Positions 7,937-60,076 of a stretch of 64,000 bases of DNA are shown here, in pieces; the first letter of the stretch is position 1, and every line of letters starts with the position of its first letter. Below the pieces are notes generated by a model, which searched no databases, was not told where the DNA came from, and worked only from the letters and a program-made list of their open reading frames with translations. Position numbers and translations under genes: made by a program. Source of the stretch: Candidatus Magasanikiibacteriota bacterium (GTDB taxonomy: Bacteria; Patescibacteriota; Patescibacteriia; Magasanikbacterales; UBA922); NCBI GenBank assembly GCA_903837125.1, contig CAILTG010000021.1, positions 11,627-75,626 of the forward strand, in the 5' to 3' direction.

Positions 7937-9072
7937 ACTTTCTGAGTTAAATATATTTTTAGTGTTTTTTTAATAAAATCTTCTCCTGAATACCTTTTCA
8001 ATTCTTCTTTCGCCTTTTCTCGCAACTCCAGTCTAATATTTTCATCAGTCAAACCAGTATGTATAACTTCCGCCATTTGTTGATAATTTTCCGGATCAAA
8101 ATATAATGCCCCTTCACCTAATACTTCTGGTAAACAACTGGCATCAGATGATACCACTGGCACACCATACGTCATTGCTTCAAGCGGCGGCAAACCAAAA
8201 CCTTCATAAAGTGACGGAAAAACGTAAAGTGAAGCGTTTTGATATAGATTGGCGAGTTCTTCATCTGAAACAAAGTCAGTAAAAACTAAATTGTGATCTT
8301 TCAATCTTTCAATCTTTAAATCTTTAAATAATTTCTCATAAAAGAAATTATTCTTTCCCACCAACACTAACTGATAATCCTCACCATACTTCTCACCAAA
8401 TATTTTCCACGCCCTTAACAATCCTTCCAAATTCTTATGAGGATATGCATTACCTACATAAAGAACATACGGCTTGTTAATTTGAAATTTGAAATTTGAA
8501 ATTTGAAATTTATTTGTATCTTGATTATTGATTATTTTTGTAAACGGTGCTTGATAAATAACCACCATTTTCTCCAACGGCACTCCCAAAGTTTGATGCA
8601 CATCCTGTTTAGTAAATTCACTCGTTACAATAATCTGTTTGGCCTTTTTTACCGCATGACGTAACACTAAACGATGAACCAAATCTTTAAACCAATAAAC
8701 AAATCGTCCGTGCGTACTCGCCTCTTGGCGAGGATAATGATACATTATTAAATCATGAATGGTAACCACGAATGGTTTATTATAAAACAATGGTACATTC
8801 CAATGTGGAAAATGCATTAAATCTACTTGCTCTTTTTCAATTATCTTCTTAAATTTAAACTGCTCTTGCCAACTATACCATGATATATTTGCTTCAATAA
8901 TCTTAAAGCTGTTCGGTAATTCTGCACTCTCCAATTCTTTTGCATTTCTTACAAAAATAAAGTATTCACTCTCTTTGTCTATTTCAGCCAAACCCAAAAC
9001 CAACTCCTGAACATACCTGCCCAAGCCTGCCTGTTTTGGTCCATACATCCGCGCATCTATACCAATTTTCAT
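7933..9072 (-). CDS. Glycosyltransferase family 4 (GT-B, 'group 1')
   Basis: C-terminal EGFGLPPLEAMTYGVPVVSSDASCLPEVLGEG motif. Overlaps the upstream gene by 4 nt. Contains an in-frame (AATTTGA)x4.7 repeat encoding KFQISNFKFQI. Confidence 0.85.
   Translation of the reverse strand: MKIGIDARMYGPKQAGLGRYVQELVLGLAEIDKESEYFIFVRNAKELESAELPNSFKIIEANISWYSWQEQFKFKKIIEKEQVDLMHFPHWNVPLFYNKPFVVTIHDLIMYHYPRQEASTHGRFVYWFKDLVHRLVLRHAVKKAKQIIVTSEFTKQDVHQTLGVPLEKMVVIYQAPFTKIINNQDTNKFQISNFKFQINKPYVLYVGNAYPHKNLEGLLRAWKIFGEKYGEDYQLVLVGKNNFFYEKLFKDLKIERLKDHNLVFTDFVSDEELANLYQNASLYVFPSLYEGFGLPPLEAMTYGVPVVSSDASCLPEVLGEGALYFDPENYQQMAEVIHTGLTDENIRLELREKAKEELKRYSGEDFIKKTLKIYLTQKV
8469..8503. repeat. Heptanucleotide tandem repeat (AATTTGA)x4 plus a degenerate unit, in frame inside the GT4 CDS
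   Basis: aatttga aatttga aatttga aatttga aatttat, read directly. Near-identical arrays occur at 27652-27688 (inside argS) and 60077-60104 (intergenic). Confidence 0.9.
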
Positions 9073-14002: not shown

Positions 14003-14130
14003 AAAAAATACTTAAAAAGCATAAAGGCTTAAAATGCTTGCAAAGCTAATACTTACAGTTTAGCGAAAAAAACAACTTTAGTCAACTTTATTAATTCCTC
14101 TAAATTTAGCTAAATTATACACTTATACCC

Positions 14131-14167: not shown

Positions 14168-14600
14168 TCTTATCTATTGTAGATGATCGCCTGCCGATGA
14201 GGCAGGAGGAAAGTCCGAACTCTATCCATTAATTTGGAAATGGTAGTGGGTAACACCCACCAGCACTTTAGAGATAAAGTGTTCGGGATAGCGCCACAGA
14301 GACAATACTACCCCGCAAAATGCGGGGGAAAGGTGAAAAGTGTATGGGGGTTTTGGTTCTAGATCAAAGCTACTATACTCCTCTAATAGTAATATTGGAG
14401 TGCGGCAAGCCCTACCTGGAGAAAGAGCAGCGCCCCGCAGTTTGCGGGGCGAAAAGTTAGCTCGTTAGAATCTATTGGCAACAATAGATCTAGATAAATG
14501 ATCGTCGCCCACAAATCACAACACCAATCGACACTAATTAGTGAAGATTAGTGAAAATAATAGTGGACACAAAATTCGGCTTATAACAATAGGTGAGACA
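14168..14600 (+). ncRNA. rnpB: RNase P RNA (bacterial type A), with a ~55-nt insertion containing ATTAGTG repeats near the 3' end
   Basis: P3 hairpin CCTGCC-GATGA-GGCAGG. CR-I GAGGAAAGTCCGAAC. P8/9 GGTAGTGGGTAACACCCACC. J11/12 CGCCACAGAGACAAT. P12 CCCCGCAAAATGCGGGGG. GGTGAAAAG. P18 ATCTATTG-GCAA-CAATAGAT followed by CTAGATAAATGA. CR-V ACAAAATTCGGCTTATAAC, whose TTCGGCTT pairs with AAGTCCGAA to form P4. P1/P2 5' tcttatctattgt pairs with 3' acaataggtgaga. Followed by an A/T hairpin terminator. Confidence 0.85.
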
Positions 14601-17726: not shown

Positions 17727-17809
17727 GTGGGCGAGAAGGGACTCGAACCCTTATGCCTTTCGGCGTTACCACCTCAAGGTAGTGCGTCTACCAATTTCGC
17801 CACTCGCCC
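17727..17809 (-). tRNA. tRNA-Leu (anticodon GAG) with a long variable arm
   Basis: Reverse complement GGGCGAGTGGCGAAATTGGTAGACGCACTACCTTGAGGTGGTAACGCCGAAAGGCATAAGGGTTCGAGTCCCTTCTCGCCCA. Acceptor and T arms pair. Anticodon loop TTGAGGT with G37. Leu-type D arm. Confidence 0.85.
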
Positions 17810-18602: not shown

Positions 18603-18682
18603 AAAAAAGATCAGAAGATCAGAAGATCGAAAGATCATTAAAATGCTTGATCTTATGATCTTCTGATCTTTTGATCTTTACA
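18603..18682. repeat. Palindromic array of 8-mer repeats (AAGATCAG x4, then mirror-image TGATCTTN x4) carrying 8 GATC sites; probable large terminator hairpin after the bactofilin gene.
   Basis: aagatcagaagatcagaagatcgaaagatcattaaaatgcttgatcttatgatcttctgatcttttgatcttt. The loop contains the TTAAAATGCTT motif. On the minus strand the stem is followed by a T-rich tract. Confidence 0.8.
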
Positions 18683-18685
18683 ATA

Positions 18686-27337: not shown

Positions 27338-27372
27338 TCGTTAATTTATTATTAGTGCGTATTAGTGCGTAA
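27338..27372. repeat. Short direct repeats ATTAGTGCGT x2 plus ATTAGTGG, intergenic
   Basis: attattagtgcgtattagtgcgtaaattagtgg. The same ATTAGTG unit recurs inside the rnpB insertion (14538-14570). Confidence 0.8.
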
Positions 27373-27381: not shown

Positions 27382-29070
27382 CTACATTTCTTCAACTGTT
27401 TCTATACCCAACAAATCTAACCCTTTTTCCATAGTTTCTTTAACCTTTTTTATTAATTGAAAACGAAAATTAAGAACAGTTTCCTCCGCCCCCAAAACTG
27501 GACAGGTTTGATAAAAATTATTAAAAGCTTGCGCTAAATCAAACAAATATCTAGCAATCTGTGAAGGGTCCTCGGAGTCTGTGGCTATTTTAATTGTCTC
27601 TTCAAACTTTAATAATTCTAACAAAAGTTTCTTTTCTACCGGCTCAACTGAATTTGAAATTTGAAATTTGAAATTTGAAATTTTTGATTTTTTCAATATG
27701 CTGTTGATGCGAGCTACAATATAAAGCAAATAAGGCCCACTACTACCCGTTAAAGAAATAGCTTCATTTACATCAAACACAATGTCATTTTCAGTGCCAG
27801 TTTTTAAAATAAAATATTTAACCGCGGCCACAGCTATTTTAGCAATTACTTTATCCTTATCTTTTATTTTACGAGCCAACATTACTTCGGCAATCTTTTT
27901 TTCAGCTTCGTCAAGCAGCCACTCAGCCAAAACTACATTTCCCGTACGCGAACTCATTTTACCTTCTTTTAAACTCACCCAACCATAAACCAAATGTTCC
28001 TCCCTACCTTTGCTTTCAGGCAGAGTGAATTCCAAGGCTTTAAAAATAACTTTAAAATATTCAGTCTGTTCTTTGGCCACGACATGTAAAATTCTAGCTG
28101 GATTATATTCTTTAAATTGCATTCGAGCCAAGGCCTGGTCTTTGGCTTCATAAGTTGGCAAGCCTTTGCTGTTGATAAACACTCGGTCGTGCAGACCATA
28201 TTTACTTCCTTCAAAAATGACCGCTCCTTCGCTTTTCTTAAAAATTCCACTCTTTATACCTTCTATAACAATTTTTTTACCTAATTCAAAAGTTTCTGAT
28301 TCAAAATACAAACGATCAAACTTTTTAATGCCTACTCTTTTATAAATATAATCAAAATAATCCAAACTCCATTTTCTGGTTTTTTTATACAACCCAACCA
28401 AAGATTTATCTTTACTATAAATCTTGGCATTCAAAGCTTCAATTTCTTTTTTTACCTGCTCGCTACTCTCAAAAGCTTTACCCCCATTAGCATACACCAC
28501 CCCCAAAAATTTTGCTCGTTCACTGGTGGTTTTTAATTTTGAAATTTCTGTCTGATAATTTGGAACCTGTAAAATTCCCCACAAACACTTGGCAATATGC
28601 ATACCCACATCTCCCTGATAATTTGCACGCACTACCCTATGACCTTGATTTTCAAACAATCTCACCATGCTCTCGCCAGTAGTCATGGTGCGTAAATGTC
28701 CAATATGCACCGGCTTGTGAGTATTAGGATGAGCAAACTCCACCATGATCTTTTCCTTTTTTTTGATTATTTTTTGTTTTTTTTCTGATAAAACAATTTT
28801 TGCTAATTCTTGTGCGTTCAAATAAAAATTTGCATACGGCCCGATTGCTTCAATTTTTTCTATCAATCCACCAGTTTCCAAGTTTTTTAATTTCTCAACA
28901 ATTTCTCTGGCACAATCCAGCGGACTTTTCTTCCATTCTTTTGCTAAACCAAAACAGGCAAATGCCAAATCACCCATTTCTGGATTTGGTGGAATCGTAA
29001 AATTTACCAGACCAGTAACTCCTGCTTTTTTTAATAATCTTTCTATTTCAATTTTTATTTGTTCCAACAT
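27382..29070 (-). CDS. argS: Arginyl-tRNA synthetase
   Basis: Class I HIGH motif AHPNTHKPVHIGHLR and a C-terminal DALR anticodon-binding domain. Contains the in-frame (AATTTGA)x4+ repeat at 27652-27688, encoding KISNFKFQISN in the linker before the DALR domain. Confidence 0.9.
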   Translation of the reverse strand: MLEQIKIEIERLLKKAGVTGLVNFTIPPNPEMGDLAFACFGLAKEWKKSPLDCAREIVEKLKNLETGGLIEKIEAIGPYANFYLNAQELAKIVLSEKKQKIIKKKEKIMVEFAHPNTHKPVHIGHLRTMTTGESMVRLFENQGHRVVRANYQGDVGMHIAKCLWGILQVPNYQTEISKLKTTSERAKFLGVVYANGGKAFESSEQVKKEIEALNAKIYSKDKSLVGLYKKTRKWSLDYFDYIYKRVGIKKFDRLYFESETFELGKKIVIEGIKSGIFKKSEGAVIFEGSKYGLHDRVFINSKGLPTYEAKDQALARMQFKEYNPARILHVVAKEQTEYFKVIFKALEFTLPESKGREEHLVYGWVSLKEGKMSSRTGNVVLAEWLLDEAEKKIAEVMLARKIKDKDKVIAKIAVAAVKYFILKTGTENDIVFDVNEAISLTGSSGPYLLYIVARINSILKKSKISNFKFQISNSVEPVEKKLLLELLKFEETIKIATDSEDPSQIARYLFDLAQAFNNFYQTCPVLGAEETVLNFRFQLIKKVKETMEKGLDLLGIETVEEM

Positions 29071-32268: not shown

Positions 32269-34980
32269 CTAATAAAAAATATTAAGCTGTTGCTTCAGTT
32301 TTTCCAATTTTTCTTTGGCCTCAACTAATTTTTTCTTTTCTGCCTCCACTACCTGTACAGGCGCATTATTTACAAATTCTTTATTGCTTAATTTTTTCTC
32401 TAAACCAATAGCATACGGTTCAACACTAGTTATTTCTTTTTGTAATCTAACCTTTTCTGCTTCCGCATCTACAGCACCTGCCAAATCCACAAAAACTTCC
32501 ACACCGCTAACCACAAAACCCACACTTGTTTCAGGCTTCTTAATTTTAGTCTTAATCTCAATCTTTTCTAATCTCGCCAATCCTTTTATTATTTCGACAT
32601 TATCTTTTAACAATTCAACATTTTCTCCAGCACTAATAGTTGCATTTAGTTTTTTCACTGGTTCAATTTTATTTTCAGCCCGAAGTGAACGAAGGCCAGT
32701 GATAATATTTTTTATTAGTTCAAATTCTTCATTTATTTTAATCTCAATCTTAGTCTTAATCTCAATCATAGGCCATTTTTCAACCATCAACATTCTTTCG
32801 TTTCCATAAATTTCACTCCAAATCTGTTCTGTTACAAATGGCATAAAAGGATGCCACAACTTCAACAAAGCATTTAAAATATAATTCAAAATTTCGGATT
32901 TACCACCCTCTATTTTGGCAACTTCTAAATACCAATCTGCCAAATCACTCCAAGTAAAATCACGAAGTGCCTCACCAGCTTGTGAAAAATTAAACTTTTC
33001 AATATTATCAGTAACTTGTTTTGTAACATTCAGCAACCGATTCAAAATCCATTTATCTGCAAGAGTTTCCAATTCTGGAATTTTAACATCAATTTTTGAT
33101 TCCGGAATATTCAGCAACATAAAACGAGAAATATTCCACAATTTATTTACAAAATTTCTGGCACTATCAATTTTTTCATCATAAAACTTAGAATCATTCC
33201 CTGGGCTAATCCCAAGTAAAACGCTAATGCGCAAAGCATCTGCTCCATATTCTTCAATTACCTCAAGTGGATCAATATTATTCCCAGCTGATTTAGAAAA
33301 CTTTTTTCCTTCTTCATTTCGGAGCATTCCATGGATATACACATCTTTAAATGGTATTTGATCTAAAGCGTAAGTTGACATTAAAATCATTCTGGCCATC
33401 CAAAAAAAGACAATTTCATAACCCATTTGCATCCAACTTGTTGGGTGAAACTGTTCTAGATCATTTTTGAACTCGGGTTTACCCGCCACAATCTCGCCAG
33501 AGCCGGGCTTGCCCGGCGTAGCCCTAGCGAAGCCGGGCCAGCCTAAAGTAGAAAACGTCCAAGTACCAGAAGAAAACCAAGTATCCAGAGTATCAGCATC
33601 TTGCAACCATCCCTCACCTGTTGGTTCTTCAATACCACAATAAATTTCTTCACCTTTATACCAAACCGGAATCCGATGACCCCACCAAATTTGGCGACTG
33701 ATACACCAATCGCGCAAATTTTCAATCCAACCAAAATATATTTTTTCAAAACGTTCAGGCGTAATATTAACTTTTTGATCTGAAATACCATTATGTCCCA
33801 AAGTCACAGCTTCTTTCATTAATTCTTTAAGACTTTTTTCCTTTCCTGAAACTTTTTTATTTACGTCAATAAACCACTGCGTCATTGGCAAGGCTTCTAC
33901 AATATCACCAAACCTATCTGAAGTACCAACATTCTGAAGAATGTCTTCTTCTTTTTCTAATAAATCATTTTCTCTTAACCATCTGGACACCTCTTCCCTA
34001 GCTTTTTCAGCTAAAAGACCTTGATAAAGATTCGATGCTTTATCAGTCATTTTGCCGTTCTTGTCAATTACTTCAATTAAATTTATTGGATCGTTTTTCG
34101 CTTTTTGATTTAAATACATTTCAAAGTCAACCATACTGTGTGCTGGAGTTACACCAACAGCACCTGTACCAAATTCCGTAACTACTTTTTCATCGGCAAT
34201 AATTTTAATTTCTAAATTAGGGCCGCCTGCAAATTTTTCAATATTAAAAACTTTTCCAATGTACTTTTTGTACCTTTTATCATGCGGATTTACTGCTACA
34301 GCGGTATCTCCTAATTTTGTTTCCGGTCGCGTGGTAGCAATAGTAATTGGAAAATCTTTAGAATATTTAAAATAGTATAACTTTGATGGACGTTCAACAT
34401 GAACTAACTCATCATCAGAACAAGTAGATTGGCCTTTTACTGACCAATTTACAACTCGATGCCCGTGATATATCAATCCATCATCATACATTTTTTTAAA
34501 AACAGTTTTTACTGCTAAATTCCTTTGCTCATCAAAGGTATAAGCCAAACGACTCCAATCACAACTAGTGCCTAACTTCTTTATTTGTCTTAAAATTGTG
34601 GCTTTTGAATTTTCTGCATATTCTCTAATTAACTCTAAAAGTTTTTCACGCCCATAAAATTCACGAGGTTTTTCAATTCCCTTTTTTACCAGTTCTTTTT
34701 CAACTTTAGCTTGCGTAGCAACTGCCGCGTGATCTGTACCTGGTAATAACAATACTTTTTTGCCATTCATTCTCTGATAACGCGCCATGGTATCCATTAA
34801 ACTATTTTCCATTGCATGACCTAAATGCAAAACACCAGTCACATTTGGTGGCGGCATCATAATAGAATATGGTTCACCAGTAAGATTATCTGGATTAAAA
34901 AAACCACTTGTCTCCCAACGCTCATAAATTGCATCTTCGTATTTTTGTGGTTCGTAAGCTTTTGGCAATTCTTTACTCAT
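32269..34980 (-). CDS. valS: Valyl-tRNA synthetase
   Basis: PPPNVTGVLHLGHAMENSLMD (HIGH), KFSKSAGN (KMSKS), editing domain, C-terminal coiled coil. The likely start is MSKELPKAYEP at 34980; the ORF track extends to 35016. Carries the in-frame GC-rich insert at 33478-33545 and heptamer-repeat segments encoding IEIKTKIEIK. Confidence 0.92.
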   Translation of the reverse strand: MSKELPKAYEPQKYEDAIYERWETSGFFNPDNLTGEPYSIMMPPPNVTGVLHLGHAMENSLMDTMARYQRMNGKKVLLLPGTDHAAVATQAKVEKELVKKGIEKPREFYGREKLLELIREYAENSKATILRQIKKLGTSCDWSRLAYTFDEQRNLAVKTVFKKMYDDGLIYHGHRVVNWSVKGQSTCSDDELVHVERPSKLYYFKYSKDFPITIATTRPETKLGDTAVAVNPHDKRYKKYIGKVFNIEKFAGGPNLEIKIIADEKVVTEFGTGAVGVTPAHSMVDFEMYLNQKAKNDPINLIEVIDKNGKMTDKASNLYQGLLAEKAREEVSRWLRENDLLEKEEDILQNVGTSDRFGDIVEALPMTQWFIDVNKKVSGKEKSLKELMKEAVTLGHNGISDQKVNITPERFEKIYFGWIENLRDWCISRQIWWGHRIPVWYKGEEIYCGIEEPTGEGWLQDADTLDTWFSSGTWTFSTLGWPGFARATPGKPGSGEIVAGKPEFKNDLEQFHPTSWMQMGYEIVFFWMARMILMSTYALDQIPFKDVYIHGMLRNEEGKKFSKSAGNNIDPLEVIEEYGADALRISVLLGISPGNDSKFYDEKIDSARNFVNKLWNISRFMLLNIPESKIDVKIPELETLADKWILNRLLNVTKQVTDNIEKFNFSQAGEALRDFTWSDLADWYLEVAKIEGGKSEILNYILNALLKLWHPFMPFVTEQIWSEIYGNERMLMVEKWPMIEIKTKIEIKINEEFELIKNIITGLRSLRAENKIEPVKKLNATISAGENVELLKDNVEIIKGLARLEKIEIKTKIKKPETSVGFVVSGVEVFVDLAGAVDAEAEKVRLQKEITSVEPYAIGLEKKLSNKEFVNNAPVQVVEAEKKKLVEAKEKLEKLKQQLNIFY
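32740..32767. repeat. Heptamer-periodic repeat (AATCTCA / ATCTTAG / TCTTAAT ...) in frame in valS. Related arrays occur at 32547-32575, 40611-40640 and 41561-41586.
   Basis: aatctcaatcttagtcttaatctcaatc encodes IEIKTKIEIK on the minus strand. The same gtcttagtcttaat motif lies just 3' of yidC and at the nusA 3' end. Confidence 0.8.
33478..33545. repeat. GC-rich palindrome-containing in-frame insertion in valS
   Basis: acccgccacaatctcgccagagccgggcttgcccggcgtagccctagcgaagccgggccagcc, with inverted repeat gccgggc tt gcccggc. Encodes GFARATPGKPGSGEIVAGKPEF, inserted between the conserved TLGWP and FHPTS blocks of ValS. Confidence 0.7.
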
Positions 34981-35219
34981 AAAATATATAACATGAAACA
35001 GGTAACAAATTGTCATGTGCTACAGGTTATCTGCTATAGGTTACCTGGTATAGATTACCTCAATAATCCAAATTAATCAAGTAATTATCTAAACATAGCA
35101 GAAAAGTCTTTATAAAATGTCACTCTTATCAAAACTTCTTTTAATGGCTTAAACAAGCCAAAATTAATGACCGGTCAAAATCTTCTAAATTAAGCCAAAA
35201 AATGCCCACAGCCCAGAGT

Positions 35220-39635: not shown

Positions 39636-39744
39636 AATATTTTCTTTTTGTATATTAGTGACAGTATTATAGCGCAAAATGATTACAAGTTCAATTACCA
39701 GATAACAAATAACAAACTGTGTAATAGATCAAAAAATTATCCTC

Positions 39745-39789
39745 TTGACAAAATGGCTAAAATGGACTAAAATGTACTGTTATCAGTAC
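39745..39789 (+). promoter_or_regulatory. Consensus sigma70 promoter (TTGACA, 17 nt spacer, TAAAAT) plus a 16-bp perfect palindromic operator GTACTGTTATCAGTAC at the predicted transcription start of the GC-island gene.
   Basis: cTTGACAaaatggctaaaatggacTAAAATgtactgttatcagtac. Three direct repeats CTAAAATG(G) overlap the spacer. An AGGAG RBS lies 7 nt upstream of the ATG at 39826. Confidence 0.6.
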
Positions 39790-40525
39790 ACTGTGTGCTG
39801 GTAAATCCACCTGATAGGAGAGACCATGGTTGTCTTTAACGCGTTGGTTCTGATCATCGTGTTTCTCTTTACCGTCATGGGCGGCTACTGGCTCGTGGTC
39901 AAGGGGATCATGGGCTACCCCACAGCTGCCATCGCCATCGGGGTCGCGCTGATCCTGTTCTGGGGCATTCGGCGTCTCGTGCGCCGGTTCCCCTGGTGGG
40001 CCGTGAACATTCAGTTCCTGCGGCACACGGCGGATACCAAACGGTACCGAATCGAGGCAGTCACGACCACCAAAAGACGTGGCTACTATGTCATGATGGT
40101 CGTCCTGAAACGAGAAAGCGATTCCCGGCGGATCAAGGTACGCTGGAACTCGTTGCCCTCGGCCGAAACGGTGGGAGGCCCCAAAAGGGCCGAACTCCGG
40201 GAGGGTGGATCGTTCACCCTCAAATTCGACGAGACGAAGATGATCAAAGGGCTGTTCGGTAGGCCCATCGGTTACCGAGTGGTCATGAGCGACTACTACG
40301 AACCGCCGGCGGCCGTCTGATCCCACCTCCAATGAAAAGCCTCCCCCGTCTCCTCTTCATGGCGGACAAAGGCTAGAGAGGATCCTCATCCTCTCCGTGT
40401 CTCAGCGAGCTCTGAGCCATGTATTCTTACCCTCGTTCTTTTCCATCGTTCTTTTCCTGAGGTCTCAAATGACTCAGGGACCGCCACTCGCAATGAGCTG
40501 ACGGAGTTCCCCTTTGACTTTTAAC
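39790..40525. mobile_element. GC-rich (~60% GC by eye) ~0.75 kb foreign island inserted between the gpmI paralog and yidC; horizontally acquired cassette of unknown mobility.
   Basis: Abrupt change in base composition at both edges. Own promoter, operator, RBS and terminator. No integrase or inverted terminal repeats recognised. Confidence 0.55.
39826..40320 (+). CDS. Small membrane protein (2 N-terminal TM helices plus a basic beta-rich domain, possibly bacterial PH-like/bPH_2) encoded on the GC-rich island
   Basis: MVVFNALVLIIVFLFTVMGGYWLVVKGIMGYPTAAIAIGVALILFWGIRRLVRRFPWW... with a good RBS, promoter and terminator. The antisense 191-aa ORF is judged a GC-rich shadow. Confidence 0.55.
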   Translation: MVVFNALVLIIVFLFTVMGGYWLVVKGIMGYPTAAIAIGVALILFWGIRRLVRRFPWWAVNIQFLRHTADTKRYRIEAVTTTKRRGYYVMMVVLKRESDSRRIKVRWNSLPSAETVGGPKRAELREGGSFTLKFDETKMIKGLFGRPIGYRVVMSDYYEPPAAV

Positions 40526-40540
40526 ATTTAGAAATCAGAG

Positions 40541-40572
40541 GCAAAAAAATAATCCCGACTTTATCGGGATTA
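40541..40572. terminator. Bidirectional rho-independent terminator (island gene on +, yidC on -)
   Basis: aaaaaaat aatcccga cttt atcgggatt atttttatttt: an A-run before and a T-run after the stem. Confidence 0.65.
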
Positions 40573-40640
40573 TTTTTATTTTCTGTTAATTTCTGTCTAA
40601 TATGTTTTTTCGTCTTAATCTTAGTCTTAGTCTTTCAATC

Positions 40641-41414
40641 TTATTTCACAATCTCCCCTTCAATTATTTTACTATCACTTGAACTTCCACTTGTTGGAGG
40701 CTGACCTAACCCATGTTTCTTAAACACCACCAATTGTTGTAAAGCAGTTAGGAGCGTGGACAAAAACCAATATAAAGTTAAACCAGCAGGCAATTGAAAA
40801 CCGATTATTACCGTCATGAATGGCATAAAATACAGCATCTGTTTATTCATACTGGCCATCATGCTTTCATCTTTAGCCCCCGGACCGGCGTTCTTTGGCG
40901 GCTGTCTGCGAGTCATCATTCTAGTTTGCCAAAACTGCGCGCCACCAGCCAAAACTGCCAAAATAATACTGGTCTTGCCTAATTCAATAAACCCTAAACT
41001 AATAGTTTTAATAGTACCAGGATTTTTTACAAACGAATAAAGCAATTCAAAACTTTTGGAAGCCAAACCTTGACGCAAAACATAATATAAAGCAATTAAA
41101 ATTGGTAATTGAATTAAGAGTGGCAAACAAGAAGCAAAAGGATTAACTTTATTTTCTTTATAAATTTTCATGGTTTCCTGAGCAATCGCCTGTTTGTCAT
41201 CTTTAAACTTTACTTTTAAAGCTTCTAATTTTGGTTGTAGATCAGTTAAAGCTTTCTGTGATTTAATGGAAGAAGCAGTTAACGGATACAAAATTAATTT
41301 AATCAAAACCGTGATAATCAAAATCACAATTCCCACATCGGGAATTAAATTATACAAAGCCACAAAAGCATTAAAGATTGGTTGGTAAAGAATGATTTGA
41401 AAAAGATGAGACAT
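40641..41414 (-). CDS. yidC: Membrane protein insertase YidC/Oxa1 (short form)
   Basis: …LYPLT..S..SQ.....QPK...LK.K.KDD.Q....E.M.IYKENKVNP...CLPLLIQLPILIALY… YidC core. 257 aa. Confidence 0.85.
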   Translation of the reverse strand: MSHLFQIILYQPIFNAFVALYNLIPDVGIVILIITVLIKLILYPLTASSIKSQKALTDLQPKLEALKVKFKDDKQAIAQETMKIYKENKVNPFASCLPLLIQLPILIALYYVLRQGLASKSFELLYSFVKNPGTIKTISLGFIELGKTSIILAVLAGGAQFWQTRMMTRRQPPKNAGPGAKDESMMASMNKQMLYFMPFMTVIIGFQLPAGLTLYWFLSTLLTALQQLVVFKKHGLGQPPTSGSSSDSKIIEGEIVK

Positions 41415-41586
41415 AATATTAAAGGCTTAAAAGGCCTGAAAAGCTTAAAATGCTTAATGGCCAAAACTAAATAAGTTAGTAAAGTATAACAAGTAATAAC
41501 TAATTAATCAAGATACAAAACCGCCCCATAATTTGGAACGGTTTTTTGATCTTCTAATATTTCAATCTCAGTCTTAGTCTTAATTT

Positions 41587-42840
41587 TTACTCTTCTTTCT
41601 TCTCCTCAACCTTCTCTTCAACAATTTCCTCTGTTTTTTCCTCACTCAACTTCTCTTCAACAACTTTTTCCTCATCTTCCGAACTTACAATTTTATCGGT
41701 ATTACCATCTTCCACCACATTAATTTTCCAACCAGTCAAAGTGGCAGCCAAACGCACATTGGCACCACCGCGGCCAATGGCCAAAGAAAATTGGTCAGAA
41801 GCCACTTTAGCTTCGGCCTCTTGAGTTTTTTTATTTAATTCAATTGATTTAACTTTGGCAGGAGACAAAGCGGCTTTGATATAATCCTCGGTCTTTTCAT
41901 TAAATTGAATAATATCAATTTTTTCTCCGCCCAATTCTTCAATAATGGTATTGATACGACTGCCGCGCTGACCAATACAAGAACCAATTGGATCAATGGC
42001 TTCATCAGCAGTGAAAACTGCCACTTTGGAACGATTGCCAGGATCCCGGGCAATACCTTTAATTTCTACTGATCCAGAAGCGATCTCGGGAATTTCCTGA
42101 GCAAAAACAGCCTTTACCAAGTCCTCACTAGAACGAGATAAAATAATTTCCAAACCCTTCATGCCCATTTCCACTTTTTTAATTAAAAAATGTAAACGCA
42201 AACCTGGACGATATTGTTCGCGAAAAATCTGTTCAGTTTGTGGAAGTATTCCCGTAACTTTTCCCAAATCAATAATCACTGCGCCAATTTTATCACGACG
42301 TTGCACAATACCATGAATCATTCTGCCCTCTTGACCTTTTAATTCGTCATAGGCAGAATTTCTTTCGGCTTCGCGCAAACGCTGAATAATTACCTGTTTG
42401 GCGGTTTGAGCAGCCATGCGGCCAAAATCTCCACCAATTTCTAAAGGAATTTCCAAAATTTCGCCCACTTTTACTTTCTTTTTAATTTCTCTGGCTGGAG
42501 TCAACATTAATTGAGTTTTGGGATTAAAACGCGCCAAATCAGCTGTTTCTTCTTCAGTTAATTCCCGACCCTCAGCCTGAGCCTTTTCTCGGCGAACAGA
42601 CAATTCTTCTTGATCCTTTTCCAACTTTTCTGGATCAATATCTTCTACTATTTCTTTAATATCCCAAGCTTTCATATCAGCAGTCTCAGGATCAAATTTT
42701 ACTTTAATATTTTGTTGTTTATTGCCAAAATCCTTACGAAAAGCAGCACCCAAGGCTGCTTCAATAGATTCCAACACTGCCTCATAAGATAAACCTTTCT
42801 CATCACAGATGAGCTGAATTGCTTTGGTAATTTCAGACAT
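41587..42840 (-). CDS. nusA: Transcription termination/antitermination factor NusA
   Basis: NusA N-terminal domain MSEITKAIQLICDEKGLSYEAVLESIEAALGAAF, S1 and tandem KH regions, and an acidic K/E-rich C-terminal tail. Confidence 0.9.
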   Translation of the reverse strand: MSEITKAIQLICDEKGLSYEAVLESIEAALGAAFRKDFGNKQQNIKVKFDPETADMKAWDIKEIVEDIDPEKLEKDQEELSVRREKAQAEGRELTEEETADLARFNPKTQLMLTPAREIKKKVKVGEILEIPLEIGGDFGRMAAQTAKQVIIQRLREAERNSAYDELKGQEGRMIHGIVQRRDKIGAVIIDLGKVTGILPQTEQIFREQYRPGLRLHFLIKKVEMGMKGLEIILSRSSEDLVKAVFAQEIPEIASGSVEIKGIARDPGNRSKVAVFTADEAIDPIGSCIGQRGSRINTIIEELGGEKIDIIQFNEKTEDYIKAALSPAKVKSIELNKKTQEAEAKVASDQFSLAIGRGGANVRLAATLTGWKINVVEDGNTDKIVSSEDEEKVVEEKLSEEKTEEIVEEKVEEKKEE

Positions 42841-46387: not shown

Positions 46388-49300
46388 TTAGCCAACTAAT
46401 AAATTTATATGCTGTAGTTCTAAAGGCAAACCGCCAGCATTTATGACACTACCGCTAGCATTTCCTTCTGCGGAAATATTATTTATTGTTGCAAACATTT
46501 CTGGTACTTGTGCTTCAGATAAAATATCTGCCCGCAGTTCAACAATTACTCTTTGATCTTTATTTAAGACATAATTTAGATTATCTATTACTACATTACT
46601 ACCTGAAAGAGTTATTTGTGAACCAATAGGTTGTCCATCAATAAATAAATTTAAGCCAGAAATATTTTCAAATCCACTAATATTTAAACTTAAATTATTT
46701 ATTTTTACATCCTCAACTTTTGGTTCTAACTCAAATCTTCCTAAAACAATACCAATAGAACCCGTGGCCACACTTGAAATCTCTAAAGGTTGGCCAAGAT
46801 AGACATCTAAAGTCCCCAAATTAGTTGGCACTGTTAAACTAAGATGCTGCAATTCCAATGGCAAACCGCCAGCATTTATGACACTACCACTAGAATTACC
46901 TTCTGCAGAAATATTATTTACAGTCACAAACATTCCTGGTACCTGTGCTTCTGGTAAGATATCTGCCCGCAGTTCAACAATTACTCTTTGATCTTTATTT
47001 AAGACATAATTTAGATTATCTATTACTAGGCTACTCCCTGATAGAAATACTTGTGAACCAATAGGTTGTCCATCAATAAATAAATTTAAGCCAGAAATAT
47101 TTTCAAATCCAGTAATATTTAAACTTAAATTATTTATTTTAATATCTTCAACTTTTGCCTCAAGTTCAAATCTTCCTAATACAACAGCGTTAGAACCAGC
47201 AGCCGTACTTGAAACCGTTAAAGGTTGACCAAGGTAAATATCTAAAGTGCCACTACTGCTCACTGGCGCTAAGGCATTATATTCCGCTGTAATCTCGGCA
47301 TCAGTTAAAACTCGCTTATAAAATTTAATTTCATCCATAGAACCAGAGAAGAAGTAATTATTATTATAACTTCCCACCAGAAGTGGAGAATTATCATTCT
47401 TTACCGCACCGGTTTGTGGCTGTTCACCAACTTTTACACCATTGGCATAAACGCGAATCATACTACCATCATAAGTAAGGACAATGTGATTCCATTGGGA
47501 CGTTTTAATTACGTTAGGTGTGTCAAAAACCACGCGAACATCAGACGCGTTGGTGATGCCGGTACGTAAACTGCCGTCATTGGAAATAGTTAATTCATAG
47601 TTAAGCTCTTTGGTAGCAACTACAGCATATTGATTGGAGAAAGATTCCGGCTTGATCCAAGCTTCCAAGGTTAAGGCTTGACCTGGCTCAAGATATTCAG
47701 AATCATTGGCAGTAATTAAATCATTTGTGCCGTCAAATTGCAGAGCAGTACCAGAAATGCCAAGAACATTCGCAATAGGACATTGATCTCCCGAACATCC
47801 TAGAGGAAATAAAGAAGCTGTATCAAAAAACTTGGTTGAATTAGCCGGCTCATTTAATTTATACTCAAAACTATTAATATCAATTGGAACTGGCTTAGAA
47901 TTATTATATTCTGTAGCAATTTCTTCATCTGTCAAAACACGTTTATAAAATTTAATTTCATCTATTGTGCCAAAGAATGGATAATTGCTATTGTAATTAC
48001 CAACTAATAGAGGCGTATTATCATTTTTTATAGCACCAGTCTGCACTTCCTCACCAACTTTTACGCCATTGACATAAGCCCGGACCATACTGCCATCATA
48101 AGTAAGCACAATGTGATTCCATTGGGACAACGTAACTACATTAGGAGTATCAAAAACTACCCGAGTATCAGCCGCATTGACAATACCTGTACGCAAACTA
48201 CCATCATTAGAAATAGTCAATTCATAATTAAGTCCCTTGCTAGCAACCACAGCATAATGATTAGAACTTGCATAAGGTTTGACCCAAGTTTCCAAAGTTA
48301 GGGCTTGACCCGGTTCAAGATATTCAGAATCATTGGCAGAAATCAGATCATTTGTGCCGTCAAATTGTAATGCAGTACCAGAAATACCAGGAACATTCGC
48401 AGTAGGGCATTGATCTCCCAAACAAGCTAAAGGAAAAATTGAGGCCTGATCAAAAAATTGATTTGATCCAACCGGTTCATTTAATTTATAGATCAATTCA
48501 TTATCAACAACTGGAACCGGTTTCAAATTATTATATTCCGCCATAATCTCAGCACCAGTTAAGGTTTGCTTATAAAATTTAATTTCATCAATTGTGCCAA
48601 AGAATGGATACCTATCATCACCTAAACTACCAACTAACAATGGGGTACTATCATTCTTTATGGCACCGGTCTGTGGCTGTTCACCTACTTTTACACCATT
48701 GACATAAGCGCGAATCATACTACCATCATAAGTAAGTGCTAGATGATTCCATTGGTACATTTTTACTACATTATATGCATCAACAGCCGCACGTATGTTG
48801 GAGGCATTGGTGATACCCGCACGCAAACTACCATCATTAGTAATAGATATTTCATAATTAAACCCTTTAGTAATGACCACGGAATAATAATTGGAACTGG
48901 GCTGAGGTTTAATCCAGGTTTCCAAAGTAATTTGGTCTGTTGCTGAAATAATTTCGTTGTTATTAATATAGGTAAAATTATTTACTCCATTGAATTGTAA
49001 AGCTTTCCCAGAAATACCTATTACACCTGCCTCTGGACAATAACTAGCGCCACAACCCATCACTAAACCAGAAACATTATCAACAAAACTAGTGCTACCA
49101 GATTGCTCTTCGAAACTATAAGCTAAATTAATAACACTTGGAGGAACAACTTTTGAAACATTTACCGGTCCCAACCAATCTCCACTACTAGTTAAATTTC
49201 CATCATTATCAACTACTACGACAAGATAATAATATATTCCAGAAGTAACATTGTCCGTATAAGAAACCATAGCCATATTTGTGGAAGTGTTGATTGGTGA

Positions 49301-50524
49301 AAGTCCGGAAATAAGAGTGGTGGTATTAGTACTACGATAAATTTCAAATCTATTAAAATCATTCTGATTGTCTACATAAGTATTCCAATTCAAAACTACA
49401 GTTTCCGGAGCGCTAGAACTGGTTGAAAGACCAGTTACTGGATTTGGAGGAATTAACTTTGGATCTATTTGCCCGGTAGTAGAAGTAAAATCTATGGATT
49501 TATTGAACAAAGGAGTAACACCAGTATTTAAGACTGAAGTATTATCAACATTTGAATTTGTTTTTATAACTAAATTATTATTTGCTGAATAAGCAAAAAT
49601 CCCCTGCTCTGTTTCATAAGAAATATTCTCTAAAGCAGAAAATTTTTCTTTGGTAAATTTATTTTTTAACAATTGACCGGAATAATTATACAAAGATACA
49701 CTGCCATCAGTAAGTTGAACCACTACTTCCAGTCCAGCATTATTTTTATCAATATCAGCCACAATTAAATTAGCACCACTGTCGCGTAAAATAATAGGAA
49801 ATCCGGTGGCAATAGTTCCAGAAGCAGAATAAGCATATAATTTATCATTACTTAAATACCACAATTCGCCATTACCATCATCAACTACTCTACTTAAAAC
49901 TGGACCAGAAACATTAATAGTCTTAACAAGATTCCAACCAGATGATCTTTGATAAACTTGTATTTCAGATTCTCCATCAACCGCATAATAAAACTTATTT
50001 TTAGCGTTGTCTGTTGAAATGTGATTTATTAAACTAGTACCAACTACAATTGGTGTAGCGGTCCAAATTCCAGAGTTTAGAGTTAACTCTTGTACATCCC
50101 CAGCAGCGCTACTATAAAGAACAGTATATTTTTGTAAATTATAATTATACAAGGAAACAATATCAAAACCCAAACCATAAGCATATAACATGACATTTGA
50201 AATTTCTGTTCCTGTACTACTATACAAATGTAAATAATATTCTCCGCTAGTTTTTCTTTCTACCACGCAAATTTCATTCCCAACTACTCCATCAAAATTA
50301 CCTACAATAGGATTGCCTTCAAAAACACCCTCTGCCCAAACAGGAAAACCAGATAACAATTTTCCTGAAGCAGAATAAACAGCCAAACCACCATCATTCG
50401 TAATCAAAATTCTTTCCGCGCCAGGACTAGCGGGATTTATTTCTCCTACACTAGCAAAAACCAAACCCGGCAGAACCAAAAACCCTAACACAGCGATTAG
50501 CGTCAACTTTAATTTTGTGAACAT
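46388..50524 (-). CDS. Giant secreted surface protein: signal peptide, beta-propeller-like N-terminal region, three tandem LamG (concanavalin/laminin-G, PF13385-like) domains, two C-terminal ~147-aa tandem repeats.
   Basis: Signal MFTKLKLTLIAVLGFLVLPGLVFA. Three copies of ...ALQFDGTNDLI.ANDSEYLEPGQALTLE.W.KP....N.YAVVA.K..NYELTISNDGSLR.GI.NA...RVVFDTPNV...QWNHIVLTYDGSM.R.YVNGVKVGE...GTIDEIKFYKRVLTD.EI. C-terminal repeat GTLD.YLGQPL..SS.A.GS...VLGRFELE.KVED.KINNLSLNI.GFENISGLNLFIDGQPIGSQ... x2. Confidence 0.75.
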   Translation of the reverse strand: MFTKLKLTLIAVLGFLVLPGLVFASVGEINPASPGAERILITNDGGLAVYSASGKLLSGFPVWAEGVFEGNPIVGNFDGVVGNEICVVERKTSGEYYLHLYSSTGTEISNVMLYAYGLGFDIVSLYNYNLQKYTVLYSSAAGDVQELTLNSGIWTATPIVVGTSLINHISTDNAKNKFYYAVDGESEIQVYQRSSGWNLVKTINVSGPVLSRVVDDGNGELWYLSNDKLYAYSASGTIATGFPIILRDSGANLIVADIDKNNAGLEVVVQLTDGSVSLYNYSGQLLKNKFTKEKFSALENISYETEQGIFAYSANNNLVIKTNSNVDNTSVLNTGVTPLFNKSIDFTSTTGQIDPKLIPPNPVTGLSTSSSAPETVVLNWNTYVDNQNDFNRFEIYRSTNTTTLISGLSPINTSTNMAMVSYTDNVTSGIYYYLVVVVDNDGNLTSSGDWLGPVNVSKVVPPSVINLAYSFEEQSGSTSFVDNVSGLVMGCGASYCPEAGVIGISGKALQFNGVNNFTYINNNEIISATDQITLETWIKPQPSSNYYSVVITKGFNYEISITNDGSLRAGITNASNIRAAVDAYNVVKMYQWNHLALTYDGSMIRAYVNGVKVGEQPQTGAIKNDSTPLLVGSLGDDRYPFFGTIDEIKFYKQTLTGAEIMAEYNNLKPVPVVDNELIYKLNEPVGSNQFFDQASIFPLACLGDQCPTANVPGISGTALQFDGTNDLISANDSEYLEPGQALTLETWVKPYASSNHYAVVASKGLNYELTISNDGSLRTGIVNAADTRVVFDTPNVVTLSQWNHIVLTYDGSMVRAYVNGVKVGEEVQTGAIKNDNTPLLVGNYNSNYPFFGTIDEIKFYKRVLTDEEIATEYNNSKPVPIDINSFEYKLNEPANSTKFFDTASLFPLGCSGDQCPIANVLGISGTALQFDGTNDLITANDSEYLEPGQALTLEAWIKPESFSNQYAVVATKELNYELTISNDGSLRTGITNASDVRVVFDTPNVIKTSQWNHIVLTYDGSMIRVYANGVKVGEQPQTGAVKNDNSPLLVGSYNNNYFFSGSMDEIKFYKRVLTDAEITAEYNALAPVSSSGTLDIYLGQPLTVSSTAAGSNAVVLGRFELEAKVEDIKINNLSLNITGFENISGLNLFIDGQPIGSQVFLSGSSLVIDNLNYVLNKDQRVIVELRADILPEAQVPGMFVTVNNISAEGNSSGSVINAGGLPLELQHLSLTVPTNLGTLDVYLGQPLEISSVATGSIGIVLGRFELEPKVEDVKINNLSLNISGFENISGLNLFIDGQPIGSQITLSGSNVVIDNLNYVLNKDQRVIVELRADILSEAQVPEMFATINNISAEGNASGSVINAGGLPLELQHINLLVG
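46391..47272. repeat. Two tandem ~441-bp DNA repeats encoding the C-terminal repeat domain of the LamG protein
   Basis: Near-identical segments beginning ...aaaggcaaaccgccagcatttatgacactacc... at about 46420 and ...aatggcaaaccgccagcatttatgacactacc... at about 46862. Confidence 0.75.
47275..49150. repeat. Three tandem ~625-bp DNA repeats encoding the LamG domains
   Basis: Repeated blocks ...ggtgtgtcaaaaaccacgcgaacatcagacgcgttggtgatgcc... / ...ggagtatcaaaaactacccgagtatcagccgcattgacaatacc... / ...ttatatgcatcaacagccgcacgtatgttggaggcattggtgatacc... Confidence 0.65.
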
Positions 50525-51568: not shown

Positions 51569-54500
51569 TTATTTATCATCAAAATTAACTAAATTACTAT
51601 TATATGTATTATACGACGTAATTCCTTTAACAATACTAACAATTGGCACGAGTGGAATATGAACAGCCGACTCAAACCCACTAAGACCTAGATGCCAATA
51701 AGGTGAACCAGCTGCACTAGTTGGATGAAAACCTATATGAGCTCTGAGTCCACCACTTACTTTTTCAAGAATACTTAAGTCAGGTTTAGACCCGGCATTT
51801 ACCTTTAAAAGAGTATTTTCTGTTTCAACCAATTTTATTTGTTTAGCAGGTAGCAATTTGGACACAACACTGGTAGCTTTAAAACCAGCGAAAACGTCAA
51901 CAACATCATAACCAACATTTAAACTAGTATTTAACACAGAACCTTTTTCAGTTGTAGCATTAATAGCTTCATGAGCAGGATTGAAGGTGTAGTCCACGGC
52001 TTCTTCTTTCTCGTCAAAAATACTATTCCACATATTAACAACACCACCAGACAGTTGTGTGGTGCCTGCAACAATATTATTAGCACCCAACACACCCATA
52101 CCCACGCCACCGGCCACGGCCAGAGGTGCACCTAGCCCGCCGGTCGCGACGGTACCACCTGTAGCTAAAGTAACACCACCAGCTACTTCCACAGCTCCAA
52201 ACACAGTATTCAACCCACCCAATACAGTTTGTTTTGTTCCTTCCCACAACAAATCCCAATTTATCTCTCCACTCGGATCCGTATACTTCAATGGATTATT
52301 CTTTACATAAATATATTCATTGTAACCCAACACTCCATCGCCACGATGAATAATTGGATCTTTTGACAAGAATCTGCCAAGCAAAGGATTGTAATAGCGG
52401 GCGTTGTAATAATATAATTCTGATTCAGCATCAAATTCCTGACCAGTGTATAAATAATTACTGGTATTACTATCTTCTCCTAGTTCGCTGGCAATACTGC
52501 CAAATGGGTCATAGCTATACTGGTGCACAATTGCCCCAGTGTTGTTTGTAACCAGCACAGTGGAACCAAGAATATCTTGATTAAGATATTGCAAATTATT
52601 ATTTTGATCTATTTCTGCAATTGAGCCTAGGCCATTTACCATTGTTTTTAGAATTGTTCCGGTGGCACTTACTTCATTCAAAACAGTTAAGCCATTATTA
52701 AGATAATAAGTATTATCGCCATTTACAGCTTTCTTCACACGGTTGCCAAAATCATCATAAACAAATGCCGAAACATTATTTGTTTGATTTGGAATTTGAT
52801 AAGTAATTGAATTTAATTTATTTTCCGAATTCCAATTATAATTTACAGTTTTGGTATTTTTACCAAGCAAACTATAATTTTCTTGGATAATATTGCCATT
52901 ATTATCAGTGGCATAAGCAACATTCAATTTATTATTAAGAGACAATCCAAAAATTTCGTTGGTGTTGGCATTATAATTATAAGTAGTGGTGCCAAAGGCA
53001 GTATGGTAATTTGTTCTGTTACCCCAAGCATCATAATTATAAGCTAAATTTTGACCGGTTGCTAAATGATTATAATCAGCATTAGTAACTTGGCTTATTG
53101 AATCATAAGCATAATTAACAGTGGAAGAAGTTAATTGTCCATCAGTCAATTTAAGTTCCACCATTTGCGTTCTGTTTGATTCCTTATCATAAGTATAATC
53201 CTGTCTAAATAAAATATTAACGCCTAATTTTGTTTCTACACTCTTTGGCCTTTGCGATTCATCATAAGTATAAGTGGTAACTGTGCCATTGCCATAAGTA
53301 ACAGTTAATGGTTTGCCAAATGAAGTGTAAGTATAAACTGCCAAATTATTGGAAGCATAAACTACATTATCAAGTAGCGCGCGATTATTATAATTATAAT
53401 TTATTTTCTTATTCGCGGCATCGGTAATAGATTTTAATCCCGAGTCAACAAAATATTCTCTACCAACATTAAAAGTACCAGCCAAACCAATAATTGTTTT
53501 GGCTTCATTAGTGTTTCTATTCAAAACATCATAAGTATAAGCGGTAGTGCCGGACAAGTCACTTAAACTAAGCAAATTATTCCATTGATCATAACCATAA
53601 TTTATTTCACCTTCTGGTAAAGTTTTTTTGGTTAACCTTTCCAATTTGTCATAAGTATAGGAAACAGAATTACTATTGGCATTTAACTCACTGATTTTGT
53701 TGCTATTTTCATCATAACCAAAAGTAAAGACTTTATTGCCGGGTTCAATTCGCTTGTTTACTCTGTTTAACTGATCATATTCATAACTGGTAATTTTGCC
53801 AGCAATATTTTCTGTTAGACGGTTACTGTTGGCATCGTAAGTATAATTAATCACTGTATTTTGTGAATTAGTTTCGCTCGTCAAACGGTTTAATTTATCA
53901 TAAGCATAATTAGTCGTAAATCCACGTTTGTCTTTCAAGCTGATTTTATTATTCAACAAATCATAACCATAATCTTCATAATTGTTTAAAGAATCTATTA
54001 CTTTAATTAAGCGATTCAAAGAATCATACTGAAATTGAGTAATCTTGCTCTGTGAATCGGTGACGGTTAATTTATTTCCAGCCTTATCATAAGTATAGTG
54101 AGTATTATTATTTGCCGGATCAAATTCATCTGTCAAACGATTAAAAGCGTCATAAGTATAAGTCCAAATTCTGCTCATTTGATCTGTCTTACTTAAAACG
54201 TTACCAACTCCATCATACGTTTGTGAACTAAAATTACCTAAAGCATCAGTAATTTTTGTTTGTCTGTTCAAATTATCATACAAATAATTTATTACATGAG
54301 TATTACTAGTGCCATTGGAATTTTGACGATCAATAGTTTTAACTAAATTACCATTGGCATCATAAAAATACAGAGTATATTTATCATTGGCATCAATCTT
54401 TTTAATTACGCGGTTAGCGCCATCATAAACATAAGAAACTGAAGTTCCCAAGCTATTGCGATTGCTGACACTCAAAAATCCTCGAGGGTTTAATTCCCCG

Positions 54501-59681: not shown

Positions 59682-60068
59682 TTAATCCACCGGGATCACA
59701 TATTTCCTCAGCACAAACTTATCCGGCATTCTTTCCACATATATACTAATTTGTTCAAACATAATCGGCGTGATTCCAATATCTATATTATTCTCAAAAC
59801 AATAACTTTGGCAAGCTTTAAAAAACTTCTTCATTTTTTCTTCATCCACAGCTCGTTCGGCACTGCCCTCGCCATAACTTCTGGTTTTTACTTCTATAAA
59901 CGATAATTTTTTTAATTTATCATAATTATCATAATGGCTGGCAATAATATCCACCTCACCTTGAGGTATAGAATAATTACGCTTAACAATTTCATAACCA
60001 GCTTTAATTAAAAAAAGTGAGGCCTGCTCCTCACCCCACTGTCCCAATTTTTGCTTAGCGGTCTGCAT
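59682..60068 (-). CDS. yraN: YraN-family (UPF0102) endonuclease-like protein
   Basis: LGQWGEEQASLFLIKAGYEIVKRNYS...GEVDIIASH.......FIEVKTR matches the YraN family. Confidence 0.65.
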   Translation of the reverse strand: MQTAKQKLGQWGEEQASLFLIKAGYEIVKRNYSIPQGEVDIIASHYDNYDKLKKLSFIEVKTRSYGEGSAERAVDEEKMKKFFKACQSYCFENNIDIGITPIMFEQISIYVERMPDKFVLRKYVIPVD

Positions 60069-60076
60069 AAATTACA

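Follow-up and report, generated by a model that had tools for sequence, protein, structure and literature searches.

A 64-kb stretch of the genome of a Candidatus Magasanikiibacteriota bacterium (contig CAILTG010000021.1; hereafter the window) carries four short tandem arrays, two inside valS, the gene for valyl-tRNA synthetase (ValRS), and one each at the 3′ ends of yidC and nusA. We found that all four share a single degenerate hexamer, RAGAYT (where “R” is purine and “Y” is pyrimidine), present in four to six units per array and read on the minus strand, the strand that is sense for the local genes. The words from which the arrays are built are GAGATT, AAGACT, and AAGATT. Our preferred reading, at a probability of roughly 55%, is that the arrays are a genome-specific hexamer family of long simple sequence repeats (SSRs) that arose by slippage or template switching and was kept at weakly constrained sites. 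Most likely, they have no dedicated function. The four arrays are as follows.

valS site 2, 32734..32769, minus strand: ATGATT GAGATT AAGACT AAGATT GAGATT AAAATA
valS site 1, 32536..32571, minus strand: (AGA)AAAGATT GAGATT AAGACT AAAATT AAGAAG, with 32536-32565 running from AAGATT onward
yidC array, 40605..40643 (core 40611-34), minus strand: TAA GATTGA AAGACT AAGACT AAGATT AAGACG AAAAAA
nusA array, 41558..41589 (core 41564-81), minus strand: TAA AAATT AAGACT AAGACT GAGATT GAAATA

The original prediction had placed the arrays at, or a few bases from, these positions, and all four can be read in the sequence. Its gene assignments agreed with Pfam, which identified ValRS (open reading frame [ORF] 32269-35016), YidC (40641-41414), and NusA (41587-42840). 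The true ValRS start is at 34980, with a 100% match to a 903-aa database protein. Genes in the window are almost all on the minus strand, so the strand bias of the arrays is inseparable from gene orientation.

What did not hold was the period. The arrays had been described as a third heptamer family with the units AATCTCA, GTCTTAG, and TCTTAAT. We called tandem arrays with Tandem Repeats Finder (TRF) and measured periodicity as self-identity at lag 6 versus lag 7. Across the four arrays, lag-6 identity was 0.48 to 0.82 compared to 0.17 to 0.32 at lag 7, the latter equal to background. TRF returned a period of 6 or 12 for three of the four and a period of 7 for none. The three proposed units are overlapping 7-nt windows of the hexamer array (AATCTCA recurs 18 nt apart), and the family makes no contribution to the period-7 enrichment of the window. 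The proposal that the four arrays are related was borne out.

We considered whether the arrays could be a chance or compositional artifact of an AT-rich genome with abundant Lys, Ile, and Glu. The residues K, I, E, and T are indeed common, and Ile and Thr are preferentially encoded by ATT and ACT, respectively. However, RAGAYTRAGAYT matched the window nine times when 0.16 matches were expected, always on the minus (sense) strand, and none of 100 shuffles reached nine. The array 18-mer, with up to two mismatches allowed, gave 11 matches versus 0.27 expected, and neither of these two scans of the window found array matches on the opposite strand. A 24-nt score scan of the window recovered only these four loci, all on the minus strand; at a score of at least 19/24 there were 12 overlapping matches at the four loci versus a null of 1.1 per window. 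Because the unit words are infrequent (AAGACT has rank 1561 and GAGATT rank 976 of the 4051 hexamers in the window), composition does not explain their recurrence, and we rejected word frequency as an explanation. Relatives of similar composition are at background level, and two of the copies are noncoding. A chance explanation of the arrays is effectively refuted.

In kind, the arrays agree with long SSRs. Their units are arranged head to tail and are no longer than 11 nt (four to six hexamers per locus), and the arrays are more frequent than composition predicts. As in the dispersed heptanucleotide families, tandem sets of one unit recur at several loci, here four and on one strand, but the period is 6 rather than 7. 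We rejected a phase-variable contingency SSR since the six-base unit keeps the frame and the arrays lie in linkers of an essential gene and in 3′ untranslated regions (UTRs).

The two arrays in valS

Site 2 holds four perfect RAGAYT units at 32740-32763. TRF gave it a period of 6 and 5.0 copies, and its identity is 0.82 at lag 6 and 1.0 at lag 18. In frame, it encodes M-IEIKTKIEIK at ValRS aa 738-748 (IEIKTKIEIK is 32737-32766, aa 739-748). Site 1 lies 204 nt (34 hexamers) downstream, in equal codon and hexamer phase, and encodes (E)KIEIKTKIKK at aa 805-815 (KIEIKTKIKK is 32536-32565, aa 806-815). Thus, the IEIKTK-type peptides that had been predicted for valS are encoded there. The two sites are identical at 25/30 positions. 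Within the arrays, AAG accounts for 6/8 Lys codons and GAG for 3/4 Glu codons, compared to 21% and 23% in the genes of the window. Because the arrays use these rare codons, the ValRS repeat is a feature of the DNA and not of the peptide.

We next placed both sites on the protein using alignments of ValRS homologues (35 to 45 sequences, or 45 or more). Site 2 immediately follows the invariant Trp-Pro at the end of the anticodon-binding domain, and this segment is hypervariable in sequence and length among relatives. Site 1 is at the junction before the C-terminal coiled coil, where it overlies a conserved L-E-x-L-E-I strand and the four variable residues that precede K-P. The best relatives are Patescibacteria metagenome-assembled genomes labelled Magasanikbacteria with 65 to 70% ValRS identity (68 to 70% for the nearest), and compared to the clade relatives neither site adds net length. 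Compared to T. thermophilus ValRS (1GAX), the sites are +3 and +5 residues. In the AlphaFold model of ValRS, with a mean predicted local distance difference test (pLDDT) score of 75.8, site 2 is a coil in a confidence dip (10-residue block mean of ~62) and site 1 is a strand (804-810) followed by a loop. Two relatives (L021 and L044) carry heptamer arrays in the ValRS loop matching site 2.

ValRS has a further insertion, GFARATPGKPGSGEIVAGKPE, at aa ~480-501 (33480-33545) after the conserved LGWP motif. It is absent in most relatives and partly common to L019 and L021, and residues 467-520 around it were modeled with a pLDDT of <50. Upstream of the gene, the 14-mer TGCTATAGGTTACC is repeated 3.1 times at 35018-35060, ~40 nt before the true valS start, and may be an operator or promoter element. 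A related TAGGTTA repeat lies at 6714-6729 in the 3′ UTR of an asparaginase-like gene. TAGGTTA had been listed as a heptamer, which is right for this second site (period 7, 2.3 copies); at the valS site it is part of the 14-mer.

Arrays at the 3′ ends of yidC and nusA

The yidC array spans the stop codon (40641-43) and the first part of the 3′ UTR, with a TRF period of 6 and 3.8 copies. Read in one frame, the unit gives GAT TAA GAC TAA GAT TGA, and the yidC stop TAA and a TGA one codon later both fall in this stop-bearing frame. The array therefore supplies the present stop codon of yidC. The nusA array begins at the stop codon (41587-89) and has an identity of 0.75 at lag 6 versus 0.26 at lag 7. 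For these two arrays, the association with gene ends that had been claimed is correct: one meets the stop and the other directly follows it.

Both arrays are followed by predicted hairpins. An intrinsic-terminator-like hairpin at 40545-40577, ~28 nt past the yidC array, has a folding energy of −23.6 kcal/mol (z −4.7) and was also flagged by a terminator scan. Downstream of the nusA array, a hairpin at 41517-41545 precedes a promoter-like site and, upstream of yidC, a 9-mer array. RNA folding predicted that all of the arrays are unpaired. Pairing between array and terminator, as an antiterminator would have it, was not predicted, and we rejected this idea.

In relatives, the gap between nusA and yidC is 2 to 30 nt, without spacer, array, or terminator, and YidC ends 20 to 25 aa earlier relative to the conserved core, again without an array. 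Because of this shorter gap and earlier end, the 172-nt nusA-yidC spacer with its array and terminator, as well as the longer YidC tail, are lineage specific. For yidC and nusA, we rejected stop read-through, an alternative code, and a decayed C-terminal tail. Two in-frame stops precede the would-be tail of yidC, the nusA array is in another frame, and TGA is a normal stop elsewhere.

The 9-mer array, (TTAAGCNTT)x4 on the sense strand, is found at 41421-41457 and at 14005-14039. The first of these arrays ends a few bases short of the yidC ATG and the second a few bases short of the ATG of a sugar-transferase gene; the two leaders are 77% identical over ~80 nt. The same unit (AAAGGCTTA, 4.8 to 4.9 copies) also occurs at two loci of another Patescibacteria genome (L046 3252-3295 and 17353-17395). 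The array before yidC and the sugar-transferase gene may be a leader or translation-initiation element. Beyond the yidC terminator, positions 39680-40545 are GC-richer than the rest of the window and hold only an orphan 191-aa TTG-start ORF and an overlapping antisense ORF, with no Pfam or Rfam match. Within this segment, the 213 nt at 40333-40545 fold with a z of −2.6. The segment could be an unannotated structured RNA or encode a lineage-specific protein.

Origin of the family and rival explanations

We looked for the family outside this genome. Two consecutive units (RAGAYT x2) matched twice in the valS neighborhoods of relatives (1.42 Mb in total), which is the background level, and were absent from the syntenic locus of L209, one of the closest relatives. 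In metagenomes, (RAGAYT)4 matched nothing but unrelated homogeneous microsatellites on diverse contigs, and a viral scan with the array 18-mer returned only chance matches coding for E-I-K-T-K-I. At gathering score, Rfam 15 gave no match at the arrays; its only matches in the window were an RNase P RNA and two tRNAs elsewhere. Sub-threshold Rfam matches near the arrays were confined to the terminator-hairpin region beside the yidC array. We rejected a known RNA family, as none matched in Rfam. We also rejected an element of the miniature inverted-repeat transposable element or repetitive extragenic palindrome type, as the copies align only over ~25 to 30 nt and have no common flanks, inverted repeats, or self-pairing.

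Pairwise identity among the arrays is 22 to 26/30, and two draws from the RAGAYT consensus would agree at ~25/30. Since the shared consensus alone gives equal identity, we rejected array identity as evidence for copy-paste. Two other comparisons reach past the repeat. valS site 2 and the nusA copy match at 30/35 positions, including a nonrepeat tail, and the yidC and nusA 3′ regions align with a score of 35 versus a maximum of 33 in 200 shuffles and have a common ATATTAGA-AGA tail. These matches hint, weakly, at a common origin of the copies. The four loci fall within 9 kb of the 64-kb window (P ~0.01).

In the mechanism that we propose, replication slippage or short-range template switching would create and homogenize the tandem copies. 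The unit may have originated at valS site 1, where the native LExLEI-coding sequence is itself quasi-repetitive, and may then have spread to nearby sites. Selection would remove arrays except where the sequence is unconstrained. In valS, the arrays are read in a benign open frame, I-E-I-K-T-K, which the addition or loss of six-base units leaves intact; at nusA and yidC, they lie between the stop codon and the terminator. The constraint filter is the part of this mechanism that the data show directly. The arrays are located in unconstrained sequence, namely, two ValRS linkers that are variable in at least 45 homologues and two 3′ UTR spacers that relatives lack. Their periodicity is at the DNA level, and they have neither conservation nor structure. 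The background is rich in repeats, as short tandem arrays are generally plentiful in the genome and the clade and some units recur at several loci. At site 1, the alternating pattern of the strand in the AlphaFold model tolerates I-E-I-K.

Several observations weigh against this reading. Independent slippage does not explain one degenerate unit at four loci, and AAGACT and GAGATT are uncommon words here. Because the four loci cluster so closely, some copying or shared cause is needed; the array identity, however, is only that expected from the consensus, and the flank similarity is marginal. No strain-level relative, in which copy-number polymorphism could show, exists in the collections covered. 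Lastly, two copies begin exactly at stop codons upstream of terminators, which could instead reflect a function.

One alternative, which we consider unlikely, is that a dedicated or unusual repeat-writing process puts ~30-nt short-unit cassettes into permissive sites, either by templated insertion during repair or through a polymerase that strongly prefers multiunit slippage. The hexamer family would then be one output of the process behind the heptamer arrays of the clade. The four hexamer arrays within 9 kb would fit such a process, as would the position of valS site 2 in an array-prone loop and the recurrence of heptamer arrays, with differing units, at the same ValRS and ArgRS loops of many genomes. 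So would two (TCAAATT)4.7 arrays of equal length and phase in unrelated genes and a peak of array lengths at 31 to 34 nt (40/79). However, this length mode agrees with ordinary slippage under a filter for in-frame (+21 nt) steps, and the distribution is cut off at its lower edge by the TRF score threshold. The recurrence at loops can simply reflect loops that tolerate insertions, and hexamer arrays are rare in the clade (3/113). It is less probable still that the arrays form a cis-acting RNA platform, in which single-stranded RAG triplets at 6-nt spacing would be bound by an oligomeric or multidomain protein. TRAP-, KH-, or S1-like binding would tune termination, 3′-end processing, or mRNA stability of nusA and yidC, with the copies in valS being either internal sites or incidental. 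For dispersed TAACTGA repeats, binding by a regulator has been put forward (PMC4679880). Every RAGAYT copy is on the sense strand and predicted to be unpaired, two copies begin at the stop and precede terminator hairpins, and the nusA-yidC spacer with its array and terminator is a lineage-specific addition. Yet the arrays are conserved in no relative, and two of the four copies are inside hypervariable coding linkers, which is where a neutral model would place them. Arrays of unrelated units are found in other 3′ UTRs of the window, which argues for permissive space over a specific signal.

The triplets themselves bear on the same question. Bacillus TRAP sites consist of 9 to 11 (G/U)AG triplets that are 2 to 3 nt apart, and AAG is a weak TRAP-type triplet. 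The RAGAYT sites are similar in having a purine-AG triplet every 5 to 6 nt in unstructured RNA beside a terminator. They differ in having only 4 to 5 RAG triplets per site, mostly AAG and with 3-nt spacers, and in lying at 3′ ends and not in leaders; in triplet number they do not match a TRAP-type operator. We give very little weight to selection at the protein level, in which ValRS would retain IEIKTKIEIK as an amphipathic beta element, with the copies at nusA and yidC left over from former C-terminal coding extensions that have since decayed. Site 1 does overlie the conserved LExLEI strand, which is modeled with good confidence. In addition, KTKTKIKTKKHIRQK follows the yidC stops in frame (KTKTKIKTKK, a YidC-like basic tail), and basic C-terminal tails are typical of YidC. 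But site 2 is a hypervariable, low-confidence coil without a conserved pattern, and the rare codons are used uniformly. An in-frame TAA and TGA separate yidC from its putative tail, the nusA copy is in a different frame, and the YidC tails of relatives are short and unrelated.

Other tandem arrays and known repeat systems

The RAGAYT family lies in a window that has true heptamer arrays as well. We counted three perfect 7-nt arrays of at least three copies in the window versus 0.0 in 100 order-2 Markov simulations, so the claimed enrichment of period 7 over random sequence is real. Other units cited with it fared unevenly, as AATTTGA and TTCTGAG are true heptamers and ATTAGTG has a period of 10. 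We also tallied the TRF arrays scoring at least 40 with periods of 6 to 9 in the window and 80 loci of relatives (n = 113). The period was 7 for 79 of these, 9 for 16, 8 for 15, and 6 for only 3. Perfect heptamer arrays are mostly in long ORFs (22/25). Metagenome contigs were rejected as a control for heptamer density because they had been picked for repeat-richness and are biased. Taken together, a proliferation of heptamers in coding and noncoding DNA, as originally proposed, is right for the clade, and the RAGAYT family is a hexamer outlier to it.

Across 77 valS genes, the heptamer arrays concentrate at three loops, corresponding to aa ~455, ~635-644, and ~750 of the window protein, and the loop at ~750 is the one that holds hexamer site 2. 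Array lengths beyond the main peak are near 38 to 41, 51 to 53, and 94 nt, and the lengths are compatible with in-frame steps of +21 nt. The recurring ValRS and ArgRS loop arrays have units that differ between genomes, typically in 4.4 to 4.9 copies and often of the form AAWTTYN. Examples of heptamer arrays in relatives are the following.

L019, 11341-11371
L041, 11309-11341
L059, 11040-11073
L063, 11358-11390
L021, 12243-12269
L044, 12183-12210
L022, 18385-18415
L018, 17841-17872

Within the window, the two (TCAAATT)4.7 arrays (minus reading) are each 33 nt long, at 8479-8511 and 27651-27683. One lies in the interdomain linker of a GT4 glycosyltransferase, where it reads FQISNFKFQIN in frame, and the other in the ArgRS loop with which the DALR domain begins, with KISNFKFQISN as its in-frame reading. 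The ArgRS array replaces variable sequence and is no net insertion compared to E. coli ArgRS. A third, degenerate copy of TCAAATT is in the intergenic spacer at 60067-60142. We rejected a “slippery heptamer” frameshift reading of AAATTTC because most heptamer units of the relatives are not of the form X XXY YYZ.

Directly after the stop of a bactofilin gene, at 18603-18683, four 8-mers of AAGATCAN and four complements are predicted to form a ~30-bp hairpin followed by a T-run (−44.4 kcal/mol, z −8). From its position, this hairpin appears to be a terminator made up of two tandem arrays. Comparable inverted pairs, of heptamer arrays, are found in relatives L008, L019, L020, and L079. A bacterial RNase P RNA of class A is encoded at 14171-14599 on the plus strand (173 bits), and its 429 nt exceed the length of the model by ~60 nt. 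The ATTAGTG site at 14537-14555, with its period of 10 (ATTAGTGAAG x1.9), is inside this gene, and the related TATTAGTGCG x2.2 is at 27350-27371 in the argS 3′ UTR. At 17727-17809 on the minus strand, Rfam reported a tRNA (51 bits), for which ARAGORN gave “tRNA-???” and an “anticodon” of two bases; the anticodon loop may be unusual, or the gene may be interrupted. Two very large minus-strand ORFs, 46388-50524 (1378 aa) and 51569-59470 (2633 aa), contain long internal tandem duplications, with units of 435 nt and ~627 nt at 46395-48832, along with numerous shorter repeats. They probably encode repeat-rich surface proteins.

We compared the RAGAYT family to described repeat systems. According to Mrazek 2007, as relayed in PMC4679880 and PMC4692102, heptanucleotides are the commonest class of long SSRs in most prokaryotic genomes, units with a length divisible by three are those that coding regions tolerate most often, and polymerase slippage is the proposed origin. 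In that account, long SSRs are arrays of short units (1 to 11 nt) that are longer than chance and sporadic and lineage specific in their distribution, which the RAGAYT arrays resemble. They differ in being short (four to six units) and imperfect, with an R/Y wobble, and in having one degenerate unit at four loci in 9 kb. The TAACTGA repeats of marine Beggiatoaceae, cyanobacteria, and Bacteroidetes (PMC4679880) are alike in that one unit is dispersed in sets of two to six copies. In Beggiatoaceae, the sets overlap the stop codons of upstream genes, since the repeat itself encodes stops, and copies within ORFs sit at protein peripheries or outside domains (PMC4679880). In contrast, the RAGAYT unit is 6 nt and not 7, is at four loci and not 169, and is at 3′ ends and interdomain linkers, whereas TAACTGA is mainly just upstream of starts. 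One RAGAYT frame is also open and used inside an essential gene. The other dispersed same-unit families, STRR in Calothrix and Nostoc and GGGAATC/GGGGAYT in Xanthomonas and Nostoc, likewise have genome-specific units in tandem at many loci (PMC4692102). Some of their arrays form inverted pairs capable of hairpins, and the repeats vary between close relatives (PMC4692102). These, however, are heptamers that are G-rich (G-quadruplex prone) and mostly intergenic, and RAGAYT is a purine-rich, AT-rich hexamer with no predicted structure. Our literature searches found no paper linking such repeats with Patescibacteria and none describing recurrent arrays in aminoacyl-tRNA-ligase loops.

The RAGAYT family thus joins a known kind, the dispersed long SSRs. 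It is fairly ordinary and does not change the picture of gene function, and its description here corrects a mismeasured period. The clade-wide recurrence of heptamers in the same aminoacyl-tRNA-ligase loops is the more surprising lead. A speculative extension, which we hold to be doubtful, is that the hexamer arrays are one output of a Patescibacteria-wide process that writes ~30-nt short-unit arrays into permissive loops and gene ends. Its targets may include the three ValRS loops and the ArgRS loop at the DALR start. Such arrays may have been co-opted in places, with inverted pairs becoming terminator-like hairpins and the 9-mer array being used upstream of the start codons of two genes. If true, this process would point to a peculiar property of the replicase or repair of the clade or to a functional repeat code.

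In these reduced genomes, free sequence is found nearly only in protein linkers and a few UTRs, and short arrays fill those, essential aminoacyl-tRNA ligases included. The pattern is relevant to the origin of insertions in Patescibacteria proteins and to annotation, as arrays create or move stop codons and lengthen C termini. It also bears on the mutational spectrum of organisms that cannot be cultured. If polymorphic, the arrays would be convenient strain markers.

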